NCBI GenBank assembly: GCA_041665545.1
Contig: JBAYIQ010000004.1
Location: 18,132-82,131 of the forward strand
Length of the DNA: 64,000 nt
Direction: 5' to 3'
Source of the DNA: Patescibacteria group bacterium
Lineage (GTDB): Bacteria; Patescibacteriota; Patescibacteriia; UBA1558; GWA2-36-10
Under the pieces are notes generated by a model that saw nothing but the letters and a program-made list of their open reading frames with translations, ran no database searches and was not told the DNA's origin. Both the position numbers and the translations under genes were made by a program. Positions 2,152 through 58,235 of this stretch are shown here, piece by piece. The stretch's first letter is position 1, and each line of letters opens with the position of its first letter.

Positions 2152-2871
2152 CTACGCGCCGTAGACCAACAAAGAACGAATGGTGCCGTACAATGCCCTA
2201 CTGCTCTGACCCCAAGGATCGCGAACCAGGTAATTCGTGCCATCATAGGCATAAATCACCAAGTAATGACTGGGGGTAGTGCCAAAACTGACCCTTGCAA
2301 CGACTGGCCTACCAGTGGCCAGCTCTTTATAGATTTGGGTGTAAGCAATGTTGCGGTACGGCCTACTCACATAGCCATACTGCAGCGCTTCTGGCAAGCG
2401 AATAAGATCTCCGCATTCAGAGGTGGAAAAGGCATAGTGAGCCCTACCCTGGTAACTCCAGTTGTTAAGCACAACCGGCGTCATCGATGAGTAGCCCCAC
2501 CTCTTGTACAGCATGGCCAGGCAGGTGAGGTGACAGCCATACTTACCGATGGTCGAATTGCCGCAAGGGTAATTGAAACCAAGGGCAACATCCTTCCATG
2601 CCGGATCCAGCTGGCTGAAGTAAGGCACGTTCAGATAGATGCAGGCATTGGCCTTGTTCGGACTGACCTGCTCGGACGCCGCTCTGCCAGCAGCATTAAC
2701 CTCATCGGCAGAAATGTTGAGTTCGATGGGATCGTCGACCCCAGTATTCGGGTCAAAACTTCCGACTATCGGAGCCGTGACCATCGGCTCCTCCCTGTCA
2801 CAGCCCGCCATCCACGACAGCAGGCCCAGCGCCAGCAGTACGCTGACCAACAAACTCACTCGGCTCTTCAT
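2152..2871 (-). CDS. High-GC lipoprotein with a peptidase C39-like (papain-like cysteine peptidase) domain
   Basis: ORF track 2152..2904; the probable start is MKSRVSLL, with a GGAAGGA Shine-Dalgarno about 7 nt upstream. The signal peptide ends in LSWMAGC, a lipobox-like Cys. YFSQLDPAWKD...CGNSTIGKYGCHLTCLAMLY resembles the Peptidase_C39_2 (YvpB/BtrH-like) catalytic region. Local GC is about 50-60% against a roughly 37% background. Confidence 0.5.
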   Translation of the reverse strand: MKSRVSLLVSVLLALGLLSWMAGCDREEPMVTAPIVGSFDPNTGVDDPIELNISADEVNAAGRAASEQVSPNKANACIYLNVPYFSQLDPAWKDVALGFNYPCGNSTIGKYGCHLTCLAMLYKRWGYSSMTPVVLNNWSYQGRAHYAFSTSECGDLIRLPEALQYGYVSRPYRNIAYTQIYKELATGRPVVARVSFGTTPSHYLVIYAYDGTNYLVRDPWGQSSRALYGTIRSLLVYGA

Positions 2872-3104
2872 GACAAGTCCTTCCATGAAAAAGTCCAAGA
2901 ACAAACACGCGACTTGCTTTGAGGGTAATCCGCAAATAAACCTCCTTGGTTGTAAAGAACAAGTGCTCGTTCTTTTGCCCTCACAAAAGATTGAGCCAGC
3001 TAAAAATTTTCGCTTTTCTTAGCTTGGACAAGGCCCGAAAGATACAGGCAAACTTTTTAGGCCTTGCTCCAAGATAAAAAAATATCTTAAAAAATTATGA
3101 TAAA

Positions 3105-5789: not shown

Positions 5790-6731
5790 TTATTTACTCC
5801 AGTCTGGACCAGATACCTGGCCCTTCTGAAGATATTTATAAGCTTGCAAGGCGGCCTTGGCTCCTTCGCCAGCCGAGATGACCACCTGCTTGTAGACAAT
5901 CTGAGAAATATCACCGGCCGCAAATATGCCGGGCACATTAGTTTCGCAATCGGCGTTAATTTTAATCTCGTGCAATTCGGTCAAGTCCAACAAATCTTTG
6001 ACCCAGTCGGTTTTGGCAATGTGGCCAATTTCTACAAATACACCGTCAACCTTTATTTCTTTATTCTCGCCCTTTGATTCGTAAATCAAGCTTTCTACTT
6101 TGGAACTGCCTTTAATTTCTTTGCTAACGGCCTCAAATAATATTTCTACCTTGGGATCATGGCTGACACGCTGAATCAAAACATCCTCACCCTTAAGTTG
6201 TGGCTGGCGTACCAAAAGATAAACCTTGGCCACAATTTTACTCAAATATTCAGCTGCATCCATAGCGGAATTTCCACCACCAACCACTACTACTGTTTTG
6301 CCTTTGTATAGCGGACCATCGCAAGTAGCGCAATAGGCCACCCCCCGACCAGTAAGCTCTTTTTCGCCAGGCACGTCTAGATTTCGAGGTGTCAGGCCAA
6401 AGGCCATGATTACTGCTTTGGTCTCAAATTTTTGATTATCGGCTGTCTGTAAAATAAAAAAATCATCTTTTTTTTCGACTCTACTTATTTCCGCTGTAAC
6501 TAGTGTGGCTCCGCTTTTTTCGGCCTGAGCCAACATCTTTTGACCCAAAACCGGTCCCTCTATTTCTTCGTAACCAGGATAATTTTCAATGCTGTTGGTC
6601 AAAGCCATTTGCCCGCCAATATCCATAGAAACTATCAGGGTTTTCAAAGCTCTTCGCGCCGCATAAATAGCGGCCGTAAGCCCTGCCGGTCCTCCGCCAA
6701 CAACCACCACGTCATATTTATTGTCCGTCAT
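5790..6731 (-). CDS. trxB: Thioredoxin-disulfide reductase
   Basis: FAD motif DVVVVGGGPAGLTAAIYAARR, redox-active CATCDG, and a second nucleotide-binding motif VVVGGGNSAMDAAEYL. Confidence 0.9.
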   Translation of the reverse strand: MTDNKYDVVVVGGGPAGLTAAIYAARRALKTLIVSMDIGGQMALTNSIENYPGYEEIEGPVLGQKMLAQAEKSGATLVTAEISRVEKKDDFFILQTADNQKFETKAVIMAFGLTPRNLDVPGEKELTGRGVAYCATCDGPLYKGKTVVVVGGGNSAMDAAEYLSKIVAKVYLLVRQPQLKGEDVLIQRVSHDPKVEILFEAVSKEIKGSSKVESLIYESKGENKEIKVDGVFVEIGHIAKTDWVKDLLDLTELHEIKINADCETNVPGIFAAGDISQIVYKQVVISAGEGAKAALQAYKYLQKGQVSGPDWSK

Positions 6732-6737
6732 AAAAAA

Positions 6738-7061
6738 TTATAATTGTTTATTAATTTTTTCTAACAAAACTTTTTTGGACTGCATACCCACCATATCCTC
6801 TACTACCTTTCCACCTTTAAAAATCTTTAAGGCCGGGATAGACATTATTTCAAACTCTTGGGACTTAAGTGGGTTTTCCTCAACATTAAATTTAGCAATT
6901 TTTATATTGCTTTTGTCTTTCAGCTCTTCGGCTAGCTGGTCAATGATTGGTCCTTGCATTTTGCAAGGCATACACCAAGAGGCCCAAAAATCCACCAAGG
7001 CCACTCCCTCAAAATTTTTTATTTCTTGATCAAAGTTTTGATCGTTTAATTCTAATGCCAT
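6738..7061 (-). CDS. trxA: Thioredoxin
   Basis: A 107 aa protein with active site WASWCMPCK, a variant of WCGPCK. It lies immediately upstream of trxB on the same strand. Confidence 0.85.
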   Translation of the reverse strand: MALELNDQNFDQEIKNFEGVALVDFWASWCMPCKMQGPIIDQLAEELKDKSNIKIAKFNVEENPLKSQEFEIMSIPALKIFKGGKVVEDMVGMQSKKVLLEKINKQL

Positions 7062-7078
7062 AAATTTGTTATTAATTA

Positions 7079-7342
7079 TTAACTAGTTTTAAATAATATT
7101 TCTATTAATTTATTTAATTCTTTTTTCTTATTTTTAGTTCCCGACTGATAACAGCCATTCACCTTGTCAGTAATTAGCAAACGAGTGACCGAGTCCAGTG
7201 AAGCGCGCGCAGCCATCACCACTCGCACCACTTCTTCCACTTCTCTTTTTTCGCCGTACATTTTTTCAATCGCGCGAATCTGACCCTCAATGCGATGAAG
7301 TTGAGAATAGATTTTTTGTGGATGACAGGATTGTTTGCTCAT
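7079..7342 (-). CDS. CsoR/RcnR/FrmR-family (DUF156) metal- or thiol-sensing transcriptional repressor, atypical ligand set
   Basis: QLHRIEGQIRAIEKM...ASL matches the CsoR-family helix alpha1/alpha2. The positions of the canonical Cu ligands (first Cys and His of the C-H-C set) are replaced (REVEEVV ... KVNGC). Only one Cys is retained, plus an N-terminal Cys-His (SCHP). Confidence 0.6.
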   Translation of the reverse strand: MSKQSCHPQKIYSQLHRIEGQIRAIEKMYGEKREVEEVVRVVMAARASLDSVTRLLITDKVNGCYQSGTKNKKKELNKLIEILFKTS

Positions 7343-7351
7343 ATACCCTCT

Positions 7352-7375
7352 GGGGGTATTATATCAAACCAGTAA
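7352..7375. promoter_or_regulatory. Putative CsoR-type operator overlapping the csoR-like start
   Basis: ATATACCCTCTGGGGGTATTATAT is a pseudo-palindrome ATACCC-N5-GGGTAT with a G-tract. It resembles, from memory, described CsoR operators of the TACCC...GGGGTA type. Confidence 0.35.
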
Positions 7376-7713
7376 AAACACGTCAAGTGTGGTGGTGGAA
7401 AATCACTAACCCCTCCAACCTCCCCTTAACAGGGGAGGAACATTTAAGCCCCCCTTGTCTCGCCCACAGGGCGATCACCCTCTGGGTGAAAAGGGGGTTC
7501 CTGCCTGCCGGTAGGCAGGAAGCAATCTACAAGCTTGTGGATTGCCACGCCCCGTCGCGTCAGACGCGACGGGGCTCGCAATGACGAACCGAAAAACTAA
7601 CTTCGGATCAACAAACTTCTCGACTCCCCCTCGACCTGGCTCGGGGTCGCTCGGGATTTCGCGAGACAAACAGGAGGATACTTTTTGTTTGAAGTCATTG
7701 TTAATATTTCAGT

Positions 7714-7780
7714 GTCATTCCTGCGAAGGCAGGAATCTAGCCAGATCCCGCAACAAGTGCGGCAAGTGCGGGATAACAAC
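7714..7780. mobile_element. MITE-like palindromic element, family A, compact copy
   Basis: TGTCATTCCTGCGAAGGCAGGAATCTA ... CAGATCCCGCAACAAGTGCGGCAAGTGCGGGATAACA. Each arm is itself a hairpin. It is homologous to the copy at 9385-9468 (TGTCATTCCCGCGAAAGCGGGAATCTA ... TAGATCCTGGATCAAGTCCGGGATGACA), with terminal inverted repeats TGTCAT/ATGACA. Confidence 0.5.
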
Positions 7781-7864
7781 ATGGTTGGGGGGTTTGTTTT
7801 AAATCCTCCTTGTCAAACGGCCCTGCCCGAGCTTGCTCGAAGAAATAGACCCTTGTGCGATATT

Positions 7865-7893
7865 TGACAATAATCTTAATAGGTGATATAATA
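7865..7893 (+). promoter_or_regulatory. Exact consensus sigma70 promoter (TTGACA-17-TATAAT) for the 7923 gene
   Basis: TTGACAATAATCTTAATAGGTGATATAAT sits about 30 nt upstream of a GGGAGG Shine-Dalgarno and the ATG. Confidence 0.6.
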
Positions 7894-7922
7894 TAGTGTT
7901 TCCATAACCGGGAGGTTCTTTC

Positions 7923-8183
7923 ATGGCAGACCGTAAGGGTCCTTCGGCTGTAAGCTCGGTCTTCATCTGGCTGGCGTATTTGTCGGCAATTGCCGGCGAA
8001 TCCCTTCTTCTCTGCAAGACTTGGTGGGAGTTTGCGGCGCTTGTGGGCATTGGCGTCGCTGTTTTCTTCCTCGTCGCGTTCTTCATTGGCCTATTTAGCA
8101 TCAAGCGCCACGGCGCCGTCCATGTCCTGCTGATAGCAGTACTCGTGCTTTCGGCAATGACTCACCTGGCCATCTTCGCGTGA
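7923..8183 (+). CDS. Small high-GC membrane protein (two predicted TM helices), unknown function
   Basis: An 86 aa ORF with its own consensus promoter, Shine-Dalgarno and terminator. It has two hydrophobic segments (VSSVFIWLAYLSAIAG, VGIGVAVFFLVAFFIGLF...VLLIAVLVLSAM). GC is well above the flanking DNA. Confidence 0.5.
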   Translation: MADRKGPSAVSSVFIWLAYLSAIAGESLLLCKTWWEFAALVGIGVAVFFLVAFFIGLFSIKRHGAVHVLLIAVLVLSAMTHLAIFA

Positions 8184-8211
8184 CAACACATCACCCAGAA
8201 TGGAGAATCGG

Positions 8212-8257
8212 CCCCGTAAGTGTACGCAACGCTACGGGGTCTTAATTTTGTTTAATT
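8212..8257 (+). terminator. Rho-independent terminator of the 7923 gene
   Basis: CCCCGTAAGTGTACGCAACGCTACGGGG hairpin followed by TCTTAATTTTGTTTAATTT. Confidence 0.6.
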
Positions 8258-8274
8258 TATCATGAGTTAGCTAA

Positions 8275-8385
8275 CCCAGTTAGAAATTTACCTTAGTTGG
8301 CATATGAGATAAACTTATATAAGCAACTAAGTGACAATTTTACTAATAATACGGCATAAAATATTCAAAATAATTTCTAACTGGG
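8275..8385. repeat. Inverted-repeat element of the CCCGTTAGAAATT family (copy E1)
   Basis: CCCAGTTAGAAATT at 8275-8288 and its reverse complement AATTTCTAACTGGG at 8372-8385 flank a 83 bp AT-rich interior. The arms match copies E2-E5 at 34666-34745, 46548-46626, 47786-47889 and 47896-48044. Confidence 0.5.
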
Positions 8386-8439
8386 CTAATATTAGCCAAA
8401 AGTATTGCTTCTGTAAAGAAATGGCAGTAAATATAGGGA

Positions 8440-8468
8440 TTGACAAAATTTGATAAAGGGTGTATAAT
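8440..8468 (+). promoter_or_regulatory. Exact consensus sigma70 promoter with extended -10 (TTGACA-17-TGTATAAT) for the 8652 gene
   Basis: TTGACAAAATTTGATAAAGGGTGTATAAT. It is followed by a leader of about 180 nt containing the palindromes TATCTATTATATAGATAG and CTTTACATGGTGTAAAG, then the Shine-Dalgarno AAAAGGAGAG and the ATG. Confidence 0.6.
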
Positions 8469-8651
8469 TTTATGTTACTTTAAGTACCTTAATATTTACT
8501 TGCAAACAGCCATAATAGCCCCAGCGTTTAGATTATCTATTATATAGATAGTTTAACCGCTGCGGCTATTCGATAGTCGCTTCTACTGGTGTGCCTTGTG
8601 TCTTTACATGGTGTAAAGATAAGAGGTGTACCGAAAAAAGGAGAGAAAACC

Positions 8652-9242
8652 ATGGCTCGTCAGAAGAGTGAGTTCGTGAGTGCCCTGGGCACGGCCTTCG
8701 AGATGATCAAGCTGATCGCCGAGGAGGTCTACTTCCTGGGTGGTAACGACAACAACATGCGGACGATCCTCAAGGATCGCAAGCTGCGTCAGCAGATCGC
8801 CAAGTTGTTGGTCGCCAACACCGGTGATGTCTGCGCGTTGGACATCTTCGGCAAGAGCATCGATGAGCTGGTAAGGCAGGGTAACTACGACTGGGCCAAC
8901 AACAGCATCAACGACCACAACTTCAAGGCGGACGAGATGCACCAGACCGAAGTCTTTCTCAAGCACTTCGGCCAGAACATGAGTATGGAGGCCGTGCTCA
9001 ATGCTCTGGATGCCGACGGCCTGCGTCCGGCGACCATGTCCGAGCTGCTCGGGTTCGGCATTCGCTATCCCGAACTGCAGCGGCAGTTCCCCATCGTGGC
9101 CCTCGGCTCTGTCTTGCAGTTTACCGGTGGTGGACGTCGTGCCGGTTGCCTCTACGGCAGTGCTGACGAGCGCAGGCTCGGTCTGAACTGGGTCGACGGT
9201 GACTTGAGCGGTGCCTATCGCGTCGCTGCTGTTCGCAAGTAA
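8652..9242 (+). CDS. High-GC hypothetical cytoplasmic protein (197 aa), unknown function
   Basis: ORF track 8589..9242; the start is set at MARQKSEF, directly after a strong Shine-Dalgarno. There is no TM segment and I recognise no motifs. The clearly elevated GC gives the codon usage of a high-GC organism. Confidence 0.5.
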   Translation: MARQKSEFVSALGTAFEMIKLIAEEVYFLGGNDNNMRTILKDRKLRQQIAKLLVANTGDVCALDIFGKSIDELVRQGNYDWANNSINDHNFKADEMHQTEVFLKHFGQNMSMEAVLNALDADGLRPATMSELLGFGIRYPELQRQFPIVALGSVLQFTGGGRRAGCLYGSADERRLGLNWVDGDLSGAYRVAAVRK

Positions 9243-9313
9243 CTGGCACTTGGCCACTTGTGTCCTCGGGACTTGATTGTCCCTTTGACACTTGGCCTCG
9301 GCCAAATCGCAAG

Positions 9314-9359
9314 ACTCCGCTTTAATCGCTTCAGTGTGATGGGCGGAGTTTTCTTTTTT
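9314..9359 (+). terminator. Rho-independent terminator of the 8652 gene
   Basis: ACTCCGC...GCGGAGT hairpin followed by TTTCTTTTTT. Confidence 0.55.
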
Positions 9360-9384
9360 AAATAAAAAAACGCCAACCCCATAC

Positions 9385-9468
9385 TGTCATTCCCGCGAAA
9401 GCGGGAATCTACTATTATTATACCAATGGCAAATCAATGGTAGATCCTGGATCAAGTCCGGGATGACA
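9385..9468. mobile_element. MITE-like palindromic element, family A, full copy
   Basis: An 84 bp element with terminal inverted repeats TGTCATTCCCGCGAAAGCGGGAATCTAC / GTAGATCCTGGATCAAGTCCGGGATGACA. Each arm is a GC-rich hairpin. A second copy lies at 7714-7780. Confidence 0.5.
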
Positions 9469-9528
9469 ATGAAAAACGGCGAATTAAAAGTCTAGTATTC
9501 TTGCGAGAAACCAAAACCCCGCACCAAC

Positions 9529-9603
9529 TGGTCCCCTCACCAGGAATCGAACCTGGATCTAGAGCTTAGGAGTCTCTTGTTCTATCCATTGAACTATGAG
9601 AGG
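9529..9603 (-). tRNA. tRNA-Arg (anticodon CCU)
   Basis: A manual cloverleaf fits. The acceptor stem is CCTCTCA/TGAGGGG, followed by T8 A9. The D-stem is GTTC/GAAC. The anticodon loop CTCCTAA gives anticodon CCT. The T-arm is CCAGG-TTCGATT-CCTGG, and the discriminator A and CCA are encoded. The plus strand shows the diagnostic GGAATCGAACC. Confidence 0.8.
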
Positions 9604-9722
9604 GTCAAGTGGTGCGGGGCAAACTCCAATCCAATCTACAAAGCACACGAGTGCCCTGTTTATTAAAAATAAGGGCTAGTTGTTTGTCCCTAATATTAGC
9701 TAATAGTTTGAGTCGTAATATA

Positions 9723-9851
9723 TTACTGAAGCATTTTGGTCAAAAACTGAGTACGGCTCTCAATCATATAAACTACCAAATAAATTACTAGGATTGCTCC
9801 AACAATAATTCCCAACCTTTTTAGTTCTGCTTTAATATTTTTGTCAGTCAT
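9723..9851 (-). CDS. Possible small single-TM protein (42 aa)
   Basis: ATG...TAA ORF MTDKNIKAELKRLGIIVGAILVIYLVVYMIESRTQFLTKMLQ on the minus strand, not in the track because it is under 60 aa. It has a hydrophobic core and no obvious Shine-Dalgarno. Confidence 0.2.
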   Translation of the reverse strand: MTDKNIKAELKRLGIIVGAILVIYLVVYMIESRTQFLTKMLQ

Positions 9852-9985
9852 AATAGTGTTTATTAATTAATGCCGTGTAATTTTAGTATATACGGCTGTT
9901 TTTGTCCATGGTTTTTTGTATTTCTTTGACAATTTTGGCTCCTTAAACTAAAATTAAGGTCGTTAATTTATAATAAAAAAATAAT

Positions 9986-10429
9986 ATGTTTGGTAAAAAA
10001 GAAGCAGTAGTAAGCACAAAAAATATTGAAACAATAATCGGCCCCTCGGTAAAAGTAGAGGGTAATTTTGCGGGTGAAGGAGATTTGGTCATTGAAGGTA
10101 TGCTGGTTGGCACCCTAAACACCAAAAATAACCTCAAAATCGGCTCTAGTGCCGTAGTAGAGGCCACTGTCCGGGCCAATAACGCCTTTATTGCTGGCCG
10201 AGTCAAGGGCAATATCACTATCAAAGGGCGACTAGAAATCACTAGCTCAGCCGTAATTGTCGGCGACATCAAGGCCGCGGTTCTGTCCATAGAGAGTGGC
10301 GCCTTGATTCAGGGCAATGTGGCTATGCCTTTCGGCGAAGCAAAACACGAGGAACACCGCCCTAATCCCAAAAAAGAAGTGAAGCGAGCTGAAAATGAGT
10401 TGCCCGAAGAAAAACCTTTGGAGTCATAA
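9986..10429 (+). CDS. Bactofilin (polymer-forming cytoskeletal protein)
   Basis: Repetitive beta-helical bactofilin (DUF583) core GNFAGEGDLVIEGMLVGTLNTKNNLKIGSSAVVEATVRANNAFIAGRVKGNITIKGRLEITSSAVIVGDI, with a charged C-terminal tail. Confidence 0.7.
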   Translation: MFGKKEAVVSTKNIETIIGPSVKVEGNFAGEGDLVIEGMLVGTLNTKNNLKIGSSAVVEATVRANNAFIAGRVKGNITIKGRLEITSSAVIVGDIKAAVLSIESGALIQGNVAMPFGEAKHEEHRPNPKKEVKRAENELPEEKPLES

Positions 10430-10437
10430 ATTTTGTT

Positions 10438-11184
10438 ATGTATCTTTACATATACGATTCATTTTTGAGTGACAAAAAATATTCTGACCTCTTAGCCCAA
10501 ATTGAAAAACGCGTTACTGACTTGGGCATCAAGGGAAGAATTGCGCGTCTTTCGATTCTAAAAAATATGAAGGAGTTGATCACCGACGGAATCAAGTCTG
10601 GTGTTCAGACTGTGGTGGTCATTGGCAATGTTCAAACTTTTGCCAAAGTTATTAATATTGTGGCTGGCTTGGAAGTGGTGCTTGGTTTGATACCAGTGGA
10701 GAACGACAACAAGATTGCTAAGATGCTGGGCATACCACCAAAACTTTTGGCCTGCGATGTTATTGCTTCGCGCATTATAAAAAAAATTGACCTCGGTCTA
10801 ATCAATGGTCATTTTTTTGTGGGGCAAGCAGAAATTAATGATGCCAATGTTTTGATTGAGTATGACGGCTACAATGTGCGACCAACTACGGCTAATAATA
10901 ATATTACTATTTATAATTTTGCCGAGCGTTGTATAATACCAAATTCAACACCAGTTGATGGCGTGCTGGAGGTAGTGATCACACCAATGAAGTCTGGCGT
11001 CTTTGGTAAAAAAAATATTACTGGCACTATTTTACCTTTTTCCAAAATTAAAATAAGCACCGAGGGCGAGGAGCAGGTCTCCATCTTGACTGACGAACAG
11101 GTGATCATGAAGACGCCGGCTGAGATAAGTGTGGCGCCCCAAAAACTCCGAGTGATAGTGGGTCCAGAAAGATGTTTTGAATAA
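10438..11184 (+). CDS. Diacylglycerol-kinase catalytic-domain (DAGK_cat/YegS-like) family protein, divergent
   Basis: N-terminal fold pattern ...GVQTVVVIGNVQTFAKVINIVAG... resembles the DAGK_cat GGDGT region, with the motif degenerate. Confidence 0.4.
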   Translation: MYLYIYDSFLSDKKYSDLLAQIEKRVTDLGIKGRIARLSILKNMKELITDGIKSGVQTVVVIGNVQTFAKVINIVAGLEVVLGLIPVENDNKIAKMLGIPPKLLACDVIASRIIKKIDLGLINGHFFVGQAEINDANVLIEYDGYNVRPTTANNNITIYNFAERCIIPNSTPVDGVLEVVITPMKSGVFGKKNITGTILPFSKIKISTEGEEQVSILTDEQVIMKTPAEISVAPQKLRVIVGPERCFE

Positions 11185-14445: not shown

Positions 14446-15552
14446 ATGAAAATTATTTGCACGCAAGAAAATTTAAATTACGGATTGGGATTAGTTTCAC
14501 ATATCGCCAATAAAAACAGTAATTTGCCCATATTAAACAATGTTTTGATTAAAGCGGAGAAAGAGGGCATTACTCTAATAACCACTGATCTAGAAATCGG
14601 CGTAAAGGTTTTTGTGCGTAGCAAAGTAGAGGAGGAAGGCGCCTTTACCGTGGATGCTAAACTGTTAAATAGTTTTATTAATTTATTACCAAAAGAAAAC
14701 ATTACCCTGACCTTGGGCGAGGATAATAGTTTGGAAGTGAAAAGTAAAAATCAAGACACGGCCATTCGCGGCATGGAAGCCGAAGACTTTCCACTCATAC
14801 CAGAAATTTCTAAAGACAATGAAATTGAAGTGTCGTCTTTGGATCTCAAAAAAAGCTTGAGCCAAGTAATATTTGCCGCTTCACTGGACAACACTAGAAT
14901 AGAAATAAACGCGGTCAATTTTAATTTCAAGGGAGAGCAATTAACCTTGGCCGCCACTGATAGTTATCGTCTAGCCGAAAAGAAAATAAAAATTGCCAAC
15001 CAAAGTAAAGAAAGCAATTTAATAATCCCCCTAAAAACCCTACAAGAATTATTGCGCATTTTAAATGAAAATTCTGAAAAAAATCTAAAAATATATTTTA
15101 ACGAAAATCAAATAATGTTTTCACTGGATGGTGTGGAGCTAGTCTCCAGAGTAATTGACGGCAACTATCCAGACTACAAGCAAATTATTCCCGACAAATT
15201 TAATACCAACATCAAGTGCGATGCTGATAAATTATTGCCAGCCATCAAAGCAGTTTCTCTTTTTTGTAAGCAGGGGATTAACGACATTAGGGTAAGCTTC
15301 GACAACGCTACCAATGAAATTGTTATTACCACCGCCTCATCGCACGCTGGAAAAAGTCTGGCCAAGGTGCCAGCCGAAATAAGCGGAGAAAACAACGACA
15401 TTGTTTTCAATTATCGTTATATTATAGACGGATTAAACAATATTGATCAAAAAGAGGTGTTTATTAATATAAACAACAACACTTCGCCGGGATTGATAGG
15501 GCCAGTGGGCCATGACGACTATATTTACCTGGTTATGCCGATTAGACAATAG
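14446..15552 (+). CDS. dnaN: DNA polymerase III beta subunit (sliding clamp)
   Basis: N-terminal MKIICTQENLNYGLGLVSHIANKNSNLPILNNVLIKAEKEGITLITTDLEIG is the typical DnaN domain I. It follows dnaA. Confidence 0.85.
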   Translation: MKIICTQENLNYGLGLVSHIANKNSNLPILNNVLIKAEKEGITLITTDLEIGVKVFVRSKVEEEGAFTVDAKLLNSFINLLPKENITLTLGEDNSLEVKSKNQDTAIRGMEAEDFPLIPEISKDNEIEVSSLDLKKSLSQVIFAASLDNTRIEINAVNFNFKGEQLTLAATDSYRLAEKKIKIANQSKESNLIIPLKTLQELLRILNENSEKNLKIYFNENQIMFSLDGVELVSRVIDGNYPDYKQIIPDKFNTNIKCDADKLLPAIKAVSLFCKQGINDIRVSFDNATNEIVITTASSHAGKSLAKVPAEISGENNDIVFNYRYIIDGLNNIDQKEVFININNNTSPGLIGPVGHDDYIYLVMPIRQ

Positions 15553-15721
15553 CTTGTGGAAATGTTTTTTGGCAAATTATTATAAATTTGCTATAATATA
15601 TTGACACTCGAAAATACCTGCGTCGAACAGGGATTTGTCGGGCGCTATAGAGATATGTAATTTCAGAAATGAAGCAAGAAACATCCGTGCGCGATCTAGG
15701 GTGTTTTTTGTTTTATATAAA

Positions 15722-15756
15722 TGAAACCCGCCCACAGAACCGTAGTTCTGGGGCGG
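15722..15756 (-). terminator. Rho-independent terminator of the 15778..16248 gene
   Basis: ACCCGCCCACAGAAC-CGTA-GTTCTGGGGCGGGT hairpin. On the minus strand it is followed by TTTCATTTATATAAAACAAAA (T-rich). Confidence 0.55.
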
Positions 15757-15777
15757 GTGAGGGGTGGAAGTGGGGTC

Positions 15778-16248
15778 CTACTTCTTGGGCTTGATCTTGG
15801 CCAGGCTGGCGGTCTTGAAGCGCCCGAAGGCGCGCTTGACCTGGCGCTTGTAGTCCAGGCCATAGTGGACGGCCAACCACTGTCCCTGAAGCGCGAGCAC
15901 TTCGGGGTCGAGATGGAATTTCTTCCAATCCCTGAGAAGGTGGGCGGTCATGGCCGGCTTGATCCGAGTCACGCGGCGTCGGTTCTTGCTAGCGTCAGGC
16001 TTGACGCGGGCCAGCCGTTTGCGCAGCTTGCCCTGCCTGGAATGCAAGCCGCGAACCTCTTGTCGCAGACGAGAGCGCTGGGCGGATTGACGTCTGTTGG
16101 CCAACTCCAGGCGCGAGATCCTGGCCTGAGACGCTGCCAAACCGGCGGCCAGGTCTTTGAGCGCTTTGTCCACACGGCGCTCGAAGCGGGTCTGTGCTGC
16201 TGCTGTTGAGCGACGCAACGCTGGTAAGGATTGTTTTCGACGGGTCAC
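15778..16248 (-). CDS. High-GC basic coiled-coil-like hypothetical protein (156 aa), GTG start
   Basis: A strong Shine-Dalgarno (AAGGAGGA) lies 7 nt upstream of the GTG, with its own terminator and its own TTGACA-17-TATAAA promoter. GC is about 60%. The protein is very basic (RRKQSLPALRRS...RRQSAQRSRLRQEVRGLHSRQGKLRKRLARVKP). Confidence 0.5.
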   Translation of the reverse strand: MTRRKQSLPALRRSTAAAQTRFERRVDKALKDLAAGLAASQARISRLELANRRQSAQRSRLRQEVRGLHSRQGKLRKRLARVKPDASKNRRRVTRIKPAMTAHLLRDWKKFHLDPEVLALQGQWLAVHYGLDYKRQVKRAFGRFKTASLAKIKPKK

Positions 16249-16301
16249 GTAAGGTCCTCCTTGTGTTTGGGCGGAACAGCGGCTGAATTGCCGAACACTA
16301 T

Positions 16302-16330
16302 TTTATACACCATAATCACATTTTTGTCAA
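16302..16330 (-). promoter_or_regulatory. Near-consensus sigma70 promoter (TTGACA-17-TATAAA) for the 15778..16248 gene
   Basis: Minus-strand reading TTGACAAAAATGTGATTATGGTGTATAAA. Confidence 0.5.
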
Positions 16331-37667: not shown

Positions 37668-37785
37668 TTATAAAATTATGCACATTCACTCCGTTAAATA
37701 AAATTTAAACACAGTTTAAATTTTAAATTTGCTACATGACCACATATAAATTATACGCCAATGAAAAATATAAAAAATAAATCTG

Positions 37786-37866
37786 TCATTGCGAGTCCCG
37801 TCGAGCTGAGCTCGACGGGATGTGGCAATCCCGATGAGATTGCTTCGCTCCGCTCGCAATGACAAT
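37786..37866. mobile_element. MITE-like palindromic element, family B
   Basis: An 81 bp element with perfect 12 bp terminal inverted repeats TGTCATTGCGAG / CTCGCAATGACA. It contains an 11 bp-stem hairpin TCCCGTCGAGC-TGA-GCTCGACGGGA. A related fragment (CCCCGTCGCG-TCAGA-CGCGACGGGG followed by CTCGCAATGAC) is at 7551-7583. It lies 10 bp upstream of the pilin paralog 2 start. Confidence 0.5.
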
Positions 37867-39229: not shown

Positions 39230-39913
39230 TTATAGCCTGATACAGCCACCCCTGTCCAGCAGCATACCCTGATTGTTGTTGGGGATAAAGTCATTGATCA
39301 AGAAGACAGCGTCAACTGACCGACCCTGCCACGGCACCTTGTGTCCGGGCGCAAGATTTCGACAGCCACGGATGACTCGTCCTCTGTCTTCCCAAACCAG
39401 TACGAAGTCGCCAGCTGCGATGAAGATGATTTTCTCTTCGTGGGGACGAAGAGTAAACACCGGCCCTTGTATGTTTTGGAAGGTTTTGGTCTGAGAGCTG
39501 ATGTTTTTTACCACTACCTCTAGCCGCGCCCAGCCTTGCACGAGGAATTCATCAACGATAATTGGCTCGCCAGTGTACAGACCGACTACGTGGTTTTCTT
39601 CCCCGTGTAGCACCTGGTCATTTCCTACCCATGGAGCCGTCCAGATTTCGTAACGTATGTATTTTTGTGCTCTCGTTTCTACAGGGAAGTCCCTTCCGTA
39701 GGGGAGTGGGATCTTGGGTCCACCGTTGACTGACACAACGGCCCAGCCAATGTAGTGCCGTTGGAAGGTCAATGTGACGGTGGGTGGGTTATCGCCGTAG
39801 GGATGATCGAGAGCGCGACCCTGTTCGTCGCGGAACTCGGTGCCGAGGCCCAAGCAGCCACAAAGGGGCAACAGGGCCATCAGGCACAGGGAGATAAGCA
39901 CATAGCGACGCAT
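39230..39913 (-). CDS. High-GC lipoprotein, unknown function
   Basis: ORF track 39230..39925 (GTG); the ATG at 39913 (MRRYVLISLCLMALLPLCGC lipobox-like) is preceded by Shine-Dalgarno GTGAGGTG. GC is about 53%. It has its own exact TTGACA-17-TATAAT promoter. I recognise no domain. Confidence 0.5.
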   Translation of the reverse strand: MRRYVLISLCLMALLPLCGCLGLGTEFRDEQGRALDHPYGDNPPTVTLTFQRHYIGWAVVSVNGGPKIPLPYGRDFPVETRAQKYIRYEIWTAPWVGNDQVLHGEENHVVGLYTGEPIIVDEFLVQGWARLEVVVKNISSQTKTFQNIQGPVFTLRPHEEKIIFIAAGDFVLVWEDRGRVIRGCRNLAPGHKVPWQGRSVDAVFLINDFIPNNNQGMLLDRGGCIRL

Positions 39914-39976: not shown

Positions 39977-40005
39977 ATTATACACCACATAGCCAAAATT
40001 GTCAA
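39977..40005 (-). promoter_or_regulatory. Exact consensus sigma70 promoter (TTGACA-17-TATAAT) for the 39230..39913 lipoprotein gene
   Basis: Minus-strand reading TTGACAATTTTGGCTATGTGGTGTATAAT. Confidence 0.6.
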
Positions 40006-47895: not shown

Positions 47896-48044
47896 CCAGT
47901 TAGAAATTCACGATATTTAGCCATTGTGGTAAGGTGTAGTGGTATAAGATAAATTTACATTACCACATAAGAGACAAGCTAATGCTTAGAAACAATTATT
48001 TTACTTTAATTTTTTAAATATTTTATTAGATAATTTGTAACTGG
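47896..48044. repeat. Inverted-repeat element of the CCCGTTAGAAATT family (copy E5), ending at the ATG of the kinase-like gene
   Basis: CCAGTTAGAAATT at 47896-47908 pairs with AATTTGTAACTGG at 48032-48044, with a compensatory CCAG/CTGG change. It is followed directly by the ATG at 48045. Confidence 0.5.
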
Positions 48045-57738: not shown

Positions 57739-58235
57739 ATGTTGGATTTGACTCGGCCCCGCACTTCGGATGAGGTCTATGTTTCTGGCGCATTGACCAA
57801 TGCCAAGTTGAAAGGAGGAGTCGATCCCAGGGAGCTTTATAAGCTGATCGGCGATCTCTGTCGGCGTAAGGGTCTCAATCCCTACGTACCGCATTTGCAC
57901 ACCGATCCGGTCTTGCACAAGGACATTCATCCCACGTACGTCTACGAAATGGACCATCAGAAGGTGCTGGATGCCTGCCTGCTCATTGCCTATGTGGGCC
58001 AGGCCAGTGGTGTGTTGGTATGGAGATGGAGATGGCCAGAGCCAATTTCACCCCGATCATCGTGCTGTACGAGGCCGATGTTCCGGTCACCAACATCTCA
58101 CGCATGTATCGGGGAAATCGGGCTGTGAAGGCAGTGGTCCGCTTCATGGACATGGATGACGCTTTGGCTAAGCTGGAGCTGGCCATTGAAGTGGTGCTGG
58201 CAAGGTGGGTTCGGTCTCAACCGCTGATCTTCTAG
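57739..58235 (+). pseudogene. High-GC nucleoside 2-deoxyribosyltransferase-family gene, interrupted by a -1 frameshift
   Basis: Two overlapping ORFs in different frames (57739..58128 and 58020..58235) together reconstitute an NDT-like protein. The N-terminus is VYVSGALTN, the catalytic region is ...YVGQASGV(L)GMEMEMARANFTPIIVLYEAD (compare GLGMELGYA...VLLVIPDED), and the frames join at GGTGTGTTGGTATGGAGATGG. GC is about 55-60%. Confidence 0.55.

Follow-up and report, generated by a model that had tools for sequence, protein, structure and literature searches.

In the 64,000-nucleotide (64-kb) stretch of Patescibacteria DNA analysed here (the window), the spacer between a gene for a CsoR-like repressor and a tRNA-Arg gene harbours two open reading frames (ORF1 and ORF2) together with several palindromic sequences, which raises the question whether these form a single mobile unit or came together independently. 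A preliminary description of the locus had proposed a two-gene mobile cassette bracketed by MITEs or the remnant of a genomic island at a tRNA 3' end. The reading considered best overall, with a probability of roughly 0.8, is that of a hotspot spacer composed of several pieces, one of them a stand-alone target module of a diversity-generating retroelement (DGR) with a fixed variable region (VR). The spacer would represent a variable intergenic hotspot that gathered independent pieces: firstly ORF1, which is resident, evolves fast, encodes a putative small membrane protein and has a consensus promoter of its own; secondly three small palindromic elements, presumably non-autonomous, namely E1, E2 and one rich in AT; and thirdly a self-contained ORF2 module (about 8440–9380) that runs from its promoter through a structured leader, the gene and the inverted repeat flanking the VR to the terminator.

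The two exact TTGACA-N17-TATAAT promoters claimed for the locus were found (Table 1); this string has three matches in the 64-kb window, where 0.02 are expected. Hairpin terminators are present behind both ORFs as described, each with a T-run; they were recognised in the sequence itself and by being conserved in relatives, and a simple terminator scan called neither of them. ORF1 has the reported length of 86 aa, and ORF2 comprises 196 rather than 197 aa.

Table 1 Features of the region from the CsoR-like repressor gene to tRNA-Arg (positions refer to the window)
Feature	Position	Strand	Basis or remark
E1, MITE-like two-hairpin element (TGTCAT-hairpin ... hairpin-AACA)	7713–7778	+	Repeat search, alignment to L136
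P1, promoter of ORF1, exact match to the sigma-70 consensus	7864–7892	+	TTGACA-N17-TATAAT; kept in L136 and L139
ORF1, small membrane protein, 86 aa	7923–8183	+	ORF call; homologue at the same site in L136
ORF1 terminator, hairpin and T-run	8211–8249	+	Read from sequence; conserved in L136
AT-rich MITE-like insertion, inverted ends CCCAGTTAGAAATT	8277–8386	.	Repeat search; missing from L136
P2, exact consensus promoter, left edge of ORF2 module	8440–8468	+	TTGACA-N17-TATAAT
HP1, leader hairpin, about 25 bp	8514–8570	+	Conserved across family loci
HP2, leader hairpin, ending 20 nt before the start codon	8588–8632	+	Covariation
ORF2, 196 aa, N-terminal helical part and C-type-lectin-fold domain (predicted)	8652–9242	+	Member of DGR variable-protein family
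VR, counterpart of relatives' template repeats; 3' end GCTGTTCGCAAGTAA conserved, IMH-like	9105–9239	+	Alignment
Inverted repeat 3' of VR, GTGTC..GGGAC-TTGATT-GTCCC..GACAC	9260–9291	+	Within conserved 9245–9300 element
ORF2 terminator, hairpin and T-run, right end of module	9313–9359	+	Conserved in L009 and L004
E2, second MITE-like two-hairpin element	9385–9468	+	Repeat search, alignment to L136
tRNA-Arg(CCT), resident neighbour, no duplicated att-like repeat	9529–9603	-	60 nt from E2

ORF2, previously taken for a protein of unknown function, is placed by homology in a large family of Patescibacteria DGR variable proteins, which comprises 7,275 cluster representatives at 50 % identity and is missing from Pfam; a "hypothetical" protein without annotation thereby finds its place. 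Neither ORF1 nor ORF2 matched an entry in Pfam, PHROGs, PADLOC or NCBIfam, and since IMG/VR contained no relative of ORF2, a phage origin of the latter is unsupported. Among 135 family loci, tblastn detected a reverse transcriptase (RT) at 46 and the accessory protein Avd at 47, typically 0.5–1 kb downstream of the family gene. At locus L001, the family gene adjoins bAvd and RVT_1 genes; the Avd scores 72 bits against NCBIfam DivGenRetAVD, under the cut-off of 80. The RT sequence contains LGNLTSQ, taken to be a DGR-type motif. Where the 3' end of the gene is present a second time (n = 55), about 45 of these copies are template repeats of ~105–170 nt. In ORF2 homologues these repeats pair with the last ~135 nt of the gene, and mismatches occur almost only at template adenines (24/24 in L018, 25/25 in L059, 23/23 in L063 and 22/23 in L001). 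Such confinement of template/variable mismatches to adenines is the hallmark of a DGR. Likewise, the family protein alignment combines an invariant scaffold with a C-terminus that is hypervariable, and the predicted structure of ORF2 has the C-type-lectin fold expected of a DGR variable protein. No signal peptide or membrane segment was detected in ORF2, and its product is therefore probably cytoplasmic; it may bind a ligand. The last ~45 residues of ORF2 correspond to the variable region of this family, into which, in relatives, the Avd/RT pair would copy the template repeat with adenine-specific errors and so rewrite the ligand-binding surface.

The window copy retains a VR and the sequences at its 3' side. 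Template repeats of L009 and L001 are alignable with this VR, inclusive of its conserved end and of the repeat that follows, and both the IMH-like 3' end GCTGTTCGCAAGTAA and the 9245–9300 element are shared with L001, L004, L009 and L058. When the template repeat of L009 serves as reference, the VR departs from it at 67 % of the A positions but at only 27 % of the non-A positions, and dN/dS relative to the closest relative amounts to 0.23–0.33 outside and 1.4 inside the VR. The reading frame is intact, and purifying selection acts on it outside the VR. According to the family protein alignment and the VR/template-repeat alignment, the window protein is the sole one of 21 to have lost the otherwise invariant W185 and F191, by way of G>T and T>G changes, which are beyond adenine mutagenesis. 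Searches by tblastn and HMM revealed neither RT nor Avd in the 64-kb window, which has no template repeat either, nor were any of the three present in the 8.75 kb past its right end; the 72.75 kb thus covered belong to a contig of 113,935 bp and reach from 18 kb behind its left end to 23 kb short of its right end. The adjacent RT and Avd of a typical DGR variable protein are accordingly lacking next to ORF2 within this span. Because no DGR component lies nearby and because the scaffold changes are not of the adenine type, ORF2 is probably a stand-alone or frozen copy, and it may currently not be diversified. Its scaffold substitutions could have been copied from a diverged template instead of reflecting decay.

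The alternative that survives best, which we regard as quite possible though not as the expected case, holds that ORF2 is an active remote target whose VR is rewritten in trans by an RT, Avd and template repeat encoded elsewhere in the genome. It draws on the retention and conservation of the IMH-like end and the downstream inverted repeat, on the intact, selectively constrained gene, and on the related assembly CAYRIU01 (L141 and L009), which possesses a full DGR and two targets 65 % identical to ORF2. Among the 62 family loci with enough flank, 23 have a DGR-adjacent family gene and 39 have no DGR within up to 10 kb on each side, so that action in trans may be common; this proportion bears on the frequency of trans diversification versus fixed variants. 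Remote targets of cellular DGRs are moreover documented, and Treponema DGR targets lie far from the RT (PMC5758913). Against this stand the DGR-free 72.75 kb and the loss of W185 and F191, as homing would overwrite such changes. The fixed, stand-alone module is therefore preferred: it would have kept the cis elements for cDNA homing with no template repeat, RT or Avd nearby, and would most likely be expressed from its strong promoter under control of an RNA leader.

This leader measures about 177 nt, close to the 180 nt estimated earlier, and its two palindromes, formerly called perfect, are imperfect hairpins (HP1 and HP2). The suspicion that it might be regulatory is borne out insofar as it forms a conserved, apparently structured 5' untranslated element, with compensatory changes and a fixed position. 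Its RNA folding z-score is -6.1. In the HP2 alignment, whose sequences were taken from matches to a structure-aware model (which favours structure somewhat), 95 % of the cells are paired, 11 of 14 pairs show changes on both sides and none of 500 shuffles performed as well; the G-U pairs are compatible with the mRNA strand only. A search of 1.39 Mb located HP2 at 45 places in 43 loci, in every case immediately 5' of a family gene and mostly 19–22 nt from its start codon. No Rfam 15 family matched the leader, and neither such a conserved leader RNA nor GC3-rich coding was mentioned in the DGR literature examined; this RNA is apparently undescribed so far. It may act on translation or mRNA stability and, as a covarying leader located solely in front of these genes in the 1.39 Mb searched, offers a concrete handle on the expression control of hypervariable proteins. 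Promoter and leader travel with the gene: in other genomes the ORF2 module recurs in different surroundings, conserved from -35 box to terminator, and has no E-type element there. A further-reaching proposal, that HP1-HP2 constitutes a new class of regulatory RNA for Patescibacteria DGR variable-protein genes and that the extreme GC3-rich recoding of this subfamily, preserved even next to AT-rich RT and Avd genes, is selected at the nucleic acid level, is viewed as doubtful. If true, the HP1-HP2 leader would tie the expression of a hypervariable binder to a signal or protein partner, and the GC3-rich, A3-poor recoding might limit adenines in a transcript running into the template repeat, or stabilise the transcript.

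Elevated GC content, reported for the whole segment between E1 and E2, applies to both genes (56 % in ORF1 and 59 % in ORF2 versus 39.7 % in the window), not to the spacer separating them (8241–8651, 32 %); furthermore, the GC-rich zone begins at about 7380, left of E1, due to a hairpin cluster there. Neither is high GC a sign of recent foreign origin. ORF2 has a GC3 of 0.80, and its closest relatives are equally GC3-high in low-GC genomes, even where their own RT has a GC3 of 0.21; the ORF1 homologue in L136 is equally GC3-rich. Being common to the relatives of ORF2, high GC is therefore not evidence of recent import. At one family locus, a GC3-high gene is found next to AT-rich Avd and RT genes, a compositional signal within a single cassette. 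Family-wide adenine avoidance at synonymous sites was rejected as the cause: low-GC members have an A3 like that of their hosts, and the GC excess is therefore specific to some clades.

Comparison with the corresponding site in relatives separates the fate of ORF2 from that of ORF1. The close relative L136, with a neighbouring DAGK protein 97 % identical to that of the window, is devoid of E1, E2 and the whole ORF2 block and retains ORF1; ORF2 is likewise missing in L139. The presumed absence of the segment from relatives consequently holds for the ORF2 part, whose presence beside the tRNA is strain-specific, and fails for the segment as a whole, since ORF1 stays in L136. Sequence resembling L136 gives way to that of the module inside ATTGACAA. 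In place of the module, L136 contains 33 unrelated bases, and the event was therefore not a clean insertion. Whether insertion or deletion occurred was judged from these two relatives only, and loss by deletion of a module ancestral at the site appears unlikely. In its favour, TTGACAA and TGACAAT are 33 nt apart at the module site of L136, and the intervening bases weakly resemble the right half of E2; moreover, small-genome bacteria are prone to deletion. Against it, two independent relatives that differ elsewhere in the spacer both lack the module, and the same module is found in unrelated contexts elsewhere. In its simplest form, deletion between direct repeats, the model does not fit L136, as a single TGACAA would be left and both copies remain.

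Far less probable is a remnant island inserted by an integrase at the 3' end of tRNA-Arg. The minus-strand tRNA-Arg gene does lie about 60 bp from the right end, as had been noted, and tyrosine recombinase genes adjoin family members in L005 and L001. No relative of these two recombinases was detected in the window by tblastn, in agreement with the absence of an integrase stated before, and the search for a partial tRNA 3' repeat at the far boundary, suggested earlier, yielded no tRNA-derived direct repeat longer than 13–14 nt at 85 % identity. The left junction is situated in the -35 box and the right one at the end of E2, neither of them in the tRNA, and family genes show no preference for tRNAs (7 of 108 loci versus about 7.6 expected, i.e. 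chance level).

The flanking elements were correctly recognised as two homologous copies in the same orientation. E1 and E2 share a 27-nt arm (TGTCATTCCyGCGAArGCrGGAATCTA; 7713–7739 and 9385–9411) with 89 % identity and 0 occurrences expected by chance, of which no further copy exists in the 64-kb window. Both close with a second hairpin and (G/A)ACA, and complete relatives built of two hairpins in the same way are found on another Patescibacteria contig (L060); E1 and E2 are hence homologous. With terminal inverted repeats, small size and several homologous copies, they are MITE-like. Their junctions with respect to L136 are not clean and no target-site duplication is visible; E1 sits inside the hairpin cluster (7520–7860), itself missing from L136, and similarity to L136 resumes at the last bases of E2 (TGACAAT). 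The AT-rich insertion has a related copy near 47.9 kb of the window.

ORF1 is resident, since L136 holds a homologue (62 % identity) together with the promoter at the same site, and is restricted to the window lineage. A large protein database yielded a single further close relative (P0143, 68 % identity), and in L139 the retained P1 is followed by a 96-aa membrane ORF distantly like ORF1 (47 % identity over 30 aa). That ORF1 and ORF2 moved together in a composite non-autonomous cassette with E1 and E2 as its termini is the least credible proposal, for although these two elements are the sole copies in 64 kb, lie 1.67 kb apart in the same orientation around both genes and are jointly missing from L136, the bracketed segment is not present or absent as a unit: in L136, ORF1 occurs at that site complete with its promoter and terminator although both elements (which therefore do not bracket a mobile unit) are missing, L139 keeps P1 and its ORF1-like ORF, none of the 135 ORF2-family loci contains an ORF1 homologue, the ORF2 module does without E-type elements elsewhere, and no target-site duplication is seen. 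Given the empty site in a close relative, the suspected genomic island resolves into unrelated pieces.

The MITE-like elements, ORF2 and the leader can each be compared with known systems. Bacterial MITE or REP-doublet elements are exemplified by the Neisseria Correia elements and the Rickettsia palindromic elements. E1 and E2 resemble them in size (66–84 nt), imperfect terminal inverted repeats (TGTCAT(T)CCCG), hairpins, intergenic location, variable presence among close relatives and recurrence in another genome; they differ in having only two copies in 64 kb, no target-site duplication and no cognate transposase identified. With the Bordetella phage BPP-1 and its variable protein Mtd, ORF2 shares a conserved 3' end of the IMH type and, behind the VR, an inverted repeat (PMC5758913). 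The repeat of ORF2 differs in that its GC content is not particularly high and its loop measures 6 nt; sequence identity of ORF2 to Mtd and to TvpA of Treponema denticola is about 8 %, and ORF2 is much smaller, without secretion signal or tail-fibre context. The leader compares to RT-10, an RT-associated RNA motif in the TR-RT spacer of BPP-1 (Weinberg et al. 2017, PMC5737381), as a DGR-associated structured RNA found by comparative analysis; unlike RT-10, it is not RT-adjacent, forms part of the target gene's 5' UTR and is also present in loci without a DGR. Among the systems compared are also the cell-encoded variable proteins of CPR/Patescibacteria (DGR clade 2; Roux et al. 2021, PMC8144416). 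Although the window copy, in contrast to these, has no adjacent DGR, ORF2 is similarly small, with a C-terminal VR, a predicted lectin-type fold and no recognisable transmembrane or other Pfam domain, and its homologues reside beside Avd and RT with adenine-specific template/variable mismatches.

All sequence features listed in a preliminary description for positions 7714-9603, i.e., consensus promoters, two GC-rich genes and flanking palindromes beside a tRNA-Arg gene, are present as described. Exact TTGACA-N17-TATAAT promoters occur three times in the 64-kb window versus 0.02 expected from shuffled sequences. GC content amounts to 56 % in ORF1 and 59 % in ORF2, to 39.7 % in the window and to 32 % in the spacer 8241-8651. 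The third such promoter (39977-40005, minus strand) precedes a 227-aa lipoprotein-like ORF (39230-39913, minus strand; GC 54 %, GC3 0.61) and shares TATAATATAGTGTT past the -10 box with P1. The tRNA gene is enclosed by a 23-nt inverted repeat (9517-9539/9597-9619) which would lengthen the acceptor stem of the precursor; its region yielded a weak Y-RNA match below threshold, and similar sequences flank tRNA-Arg in L136, a locus from a close relative.

Features of the segment adjoining tRNA-Arg (window positions)
Feature	Position	Strand	Remark
E1	7713-7778		palindromic element
P1	7864-7892	+	promoter of ORF1, exact TTGACA-N17-TATAAT
ORF1	7923-8183	+	86 aa
AT-rich MITE-like element	8277-8386		inverted ends CCCAGTTAGAAATT
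P2	8440-8468	+	promoter of ORF2, exact TTGACA-N17-TATAAT
HP1	8514-8570		leader hairpin
HP2	8588-8632		leader hairpin
ORF2	8652-9242	+	196 aa
Variable region (VR)	9105-9239		3' part of ORF2
E2	9385-9468		palindromic element
tRNA-Arg(CCT)	9529-9603	minus	

Relatives of the locus were found via the neighbouring diacylglycerol-kinase-like protein, which has many close relatives and is 97 % identical in L136. There, genes for a CsoR-like repressor, an 86-aa ORF, tRNA-Arg, a 42-aa ORF and bactofilin follow one another. Window positions 6700-7519 and 9516-10500 align to L136 at 86-88 %, and 7861-8274 (P1, ORF1 and terminator) at 75 %, the ORF1 proteins being 62 % identical; in this alignment, 7520-7860 (hairpin cluster including E1) is without counterpart, and 165 nt stand in place of 8275-9515. 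Since positions 8386-8446 can still be aligned to the L136 spacer upon reading of its sequence, the window contains three extra pieces there, namely the AT-rich MITE-like element, the ORF2 block and E2. At the left junction, L136-like sequence changes to module-like sequence inside ATTGACAA, the -35 box; at the right one, similarity starts again at TGACAAT, the final bases of E2. The loci L139 and L140 (kinase 87 % identical) differ in spacer content and retain P1, followed by a 96-aa membrane ORF distantly resembling ORF1. These comparisons indicate that ORF1 is resident, that E1 and E2 would be separate small insertions, and that the ORF2 block alone represents a putative strain-specific gene gain, loss in the relatives appearing less likely. 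The central idea of a single MITE-bracketed foreign islet is thus wrong, because L136 possesses P1, ORF1 and terminator but neither E1, E2 nor ORF2; a strain-specific gene block does exist, ORF2 being missing from L136, L139 and L140.

The interpretation of the flanking elements as MITE-like repeats proved correct. A 27-nt hairpin arm is common to E1 (7713-7739) and E2 (9385-9411; 89 % identity, 0 expected by chance) and has no further copies in the window, and each element closes with another hairpin and then (G/A)ACA. As the same two-hairpin layout (TGTCATTCCCGCGAAAGCGGGAATCyAG ... CTGGATCCCCG-loop-CGGGGATGACA) recurs in three full-length copies in the unrelated Patescibacteria contig L060, both belong to one small MITE-like family. 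Their inner parts (7730-7742, GGAATCTAG; 9443-9456, GATCCTGGATC) show similarity to the T-arm region of the neighbouring tRNA (9541-9562, CAGGAATCGAACCTGGATC), which could be due to chance or to a tRNA-related origin. The AT-rich element is missing at the same spot in L136 and has a related copy at about 47896-48026. Left of E1 (7380-7712) lies a cluster of GC-rich perfect hairpins (e.g., 7498-7521, 7522-7545 and 7549-7575), partly shared with L136, one of which recurs at 37785-37831.

ORF2 had no match in Pfam, PHROG, PADLOC or NCBIfam. A word-indexed search retrieved 21 relatives, all from Patescibacteria, and pattern scans added 127 loci; a full profile search yielded 7,275 representatives at E<=1e-3 (909 of them at E<=1e-30), many of about 200 aa and some in tandem, and none was found in IMG/VR. 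In the Nomurabacteria contig L001, the homologue is located just upstream of a bAvd gene (accessory protein) on the opposite strand and of an RVT_1 gene (reverse transcriptase, RT); in between, its 3' end recurs as a 134-nt copy. Overall, tblastn detected RT in 46 and Avd in 47 of 135 loci, the typical distance being 0.5-1 kb on the downstream side of the family gene. Second copies of the 3' end were present in 55 loci, and in about 45 cases they represent template repeats (~105-170 nt) with mismatches almost only at template adenines (24/24 in L018, 25/25 in L059, 23/23 in L063, 22/23 in L001), the remainder being paralogues or chance matches. This adenine-only pattern, together with Avd (72 bits against NCBIfam DivGenRetAVD; cut-off 80) and an RT containing LGNLTSQ, which we take to be a motif of diversity-generating retroelements (DGRs), identifies the loci with template repeats as DGRs. 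In L001 (6969-8494) as in many other loci, the target gene is followed on its own strand by the template repeat, and avd is encoded on the opposite strand, between repeat and RT gene; read-through from the strong target promoter may thus supply the template RNA. Tandemly duplicated family genes (L009 2475-4055, L056 1195-2731) each have their own leader motif, and the profile search list includes fusions of two to four family domains.

ORF2 itself belongs to these variable proteins of CPR DGRs but has no DGR next to it. Its 3' end and the template repeats of L009 and L001 can be aligned base for base; the conserved VR end reads GCTGTTCGCAAGTAA in the window and ...CGCCAGTTT in the templates, a difference in the style of IMH (conserved 3' end of VR) versus IMH*, and a conserved element of 55 nt that follows the stop codon and includes an inverted repeat (9260-9291) is kept. 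Because the VR differs from the L009 template at 22 of 33 adenine positions versus 28 of 105 others, past DGR-type rewriting from another template is indicated. For codons 1-150, dN/dS is 0.23-0.33; for the VR, it is 1.4 in comparison with the closest relative. ORF2 as an active target of a remote DGR is worth considering, if somewhat improbable. Favoured over it, at a probability of about 0.6, is a stand-alone copy no longer rewritten, because template repeat, RT and Avd relatives are lacking from the window, as is RT from the adjoining 8.75 kb on the right, and because the scaffold has changed: W185 and F191, otherwise invariant among 21 proteins, are absent from the window protein only, in which residue 156, usually W, is L and V164 is replaced by A. 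These changes (G>T, T>G, T>C) are not made by adenine mutagenesis and would be erased by homing. Family copies without adjacent DGR are common: of 62 distinct loci whose sequence extends at least 2.5 kb downstream, 39 lacked both RT and Avd over 3 kb, and L052 alone among these has an RT anywhere in its available sequence.

The ORF2 module (about 8440-9380) is found in unrelated contexts, i.e., beside an S15 and a recombinase gene (L005), beside HTH and DUF2178 genes (L004), and inside DGR cassettes (L001, L009). Its junction inside the 8-nt shared ATTGACAA suggests arrival by illegitimate or microhomology-mediated recombination. Integrase relatives were absent from the window and tRNA-derived repeats from the segment borders; 7 of 108 loci have a family gene no more than 600 nt away from a tRNA, about 7.6 being expected. 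Tyrosine recombinase genes directly downstream of the L005 family gene (1613-2407) and of the L001 RT (8656-9543) hint that some copies may travel with recombinase-bearing elements.

Elevated GC does not signal recent import in this case, because relatives show the same excess. GC3 is 0.80 in ORF2, versus 0.36-0.47 in neighbouring genes and a window median of 0.40, and A occupies only 2 % of the third positions of ORF2; close relatives have the same 55-59 % GC between flanks of 34-43 %. In 125 loci with sufficient flank, family genes are on average 11 points richer in GC than their flanks, and in 46 loci 17.6 points richer than their own RT; in L001, GC3 is 0.76 for the target, 0.33 for Avd and 0.21 for RT. 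The ORF1 homologue of L136 likewise matches ORF1 in GC3 (0.67). High GC as a family-wide rule was ruled out, since low-GC members do not avoid A; GC3-rich coding is thus a clade-specific trait. Elsewhere, a 63 % GC stretch (15570-16330) between a 368-aa ORF (14446-15552) and the next gene is entered by near-consensus promoters from both sides (15569, plus; 16330, minus); it had no Rfam match even at E<=1, and its likelier product is a basic 156-aa minus-strand ORF (15778-16248). Small ORFs with GC3 > 0.6 also occur at 2152-2886 (minus) and 57739-58128 (plus; genome median 0.40), and small accessory genes of high GC, in some cases behind near-perfect promoters, seem to be a repeated feature of this genome.

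The suspected regulatory nature of the long ORF2 leader is supported by a conserved, covarying HP2 ahead of family genes. Between -35 box and start codon, identity to the window amounts to 86 % in L005, 79 % in L009 and L004, and 68 % in L001, the proteins being 58-80 % identical. The leader folds into two long hairpins (z-score -6.1), and a two-hairpin covariance model detected the motif in about 25 further loci, immediately ahead of family genes. Across 26 HP2 sequences, 95 % of cells are paired and 11 of 14 pairs show both-side changes (77 cells versus 21 in shuffles; observed values reached by 0/500 shuffles); pairing collapses in slid registers, and frequent G-U pairs are compatible with the mRNA strand only. 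An HP2-only model gave 45 plus-strand matches at 43 loci in 1.39 Mb, all directly upstream of a family gene and usually 19-22 nt before its start codon; within the window it gave a single match. The motif occurs with and without adjacent DGR and had no match in Rfam 15. The leader is presumed to act in cis on translation or on the stability of the mRNA.

The combination of a family-specific leader RNA and maintained GC3-rich coding merits further study. Known RT-associated motifs adjoin RT genes rather than targets (PMC5737381), whereas the present leader precedes the target gene. In lacking recognisable domains, the ORF2 family agrees with the published targets of cell-encoded CPR DGRs (PMC8144416).
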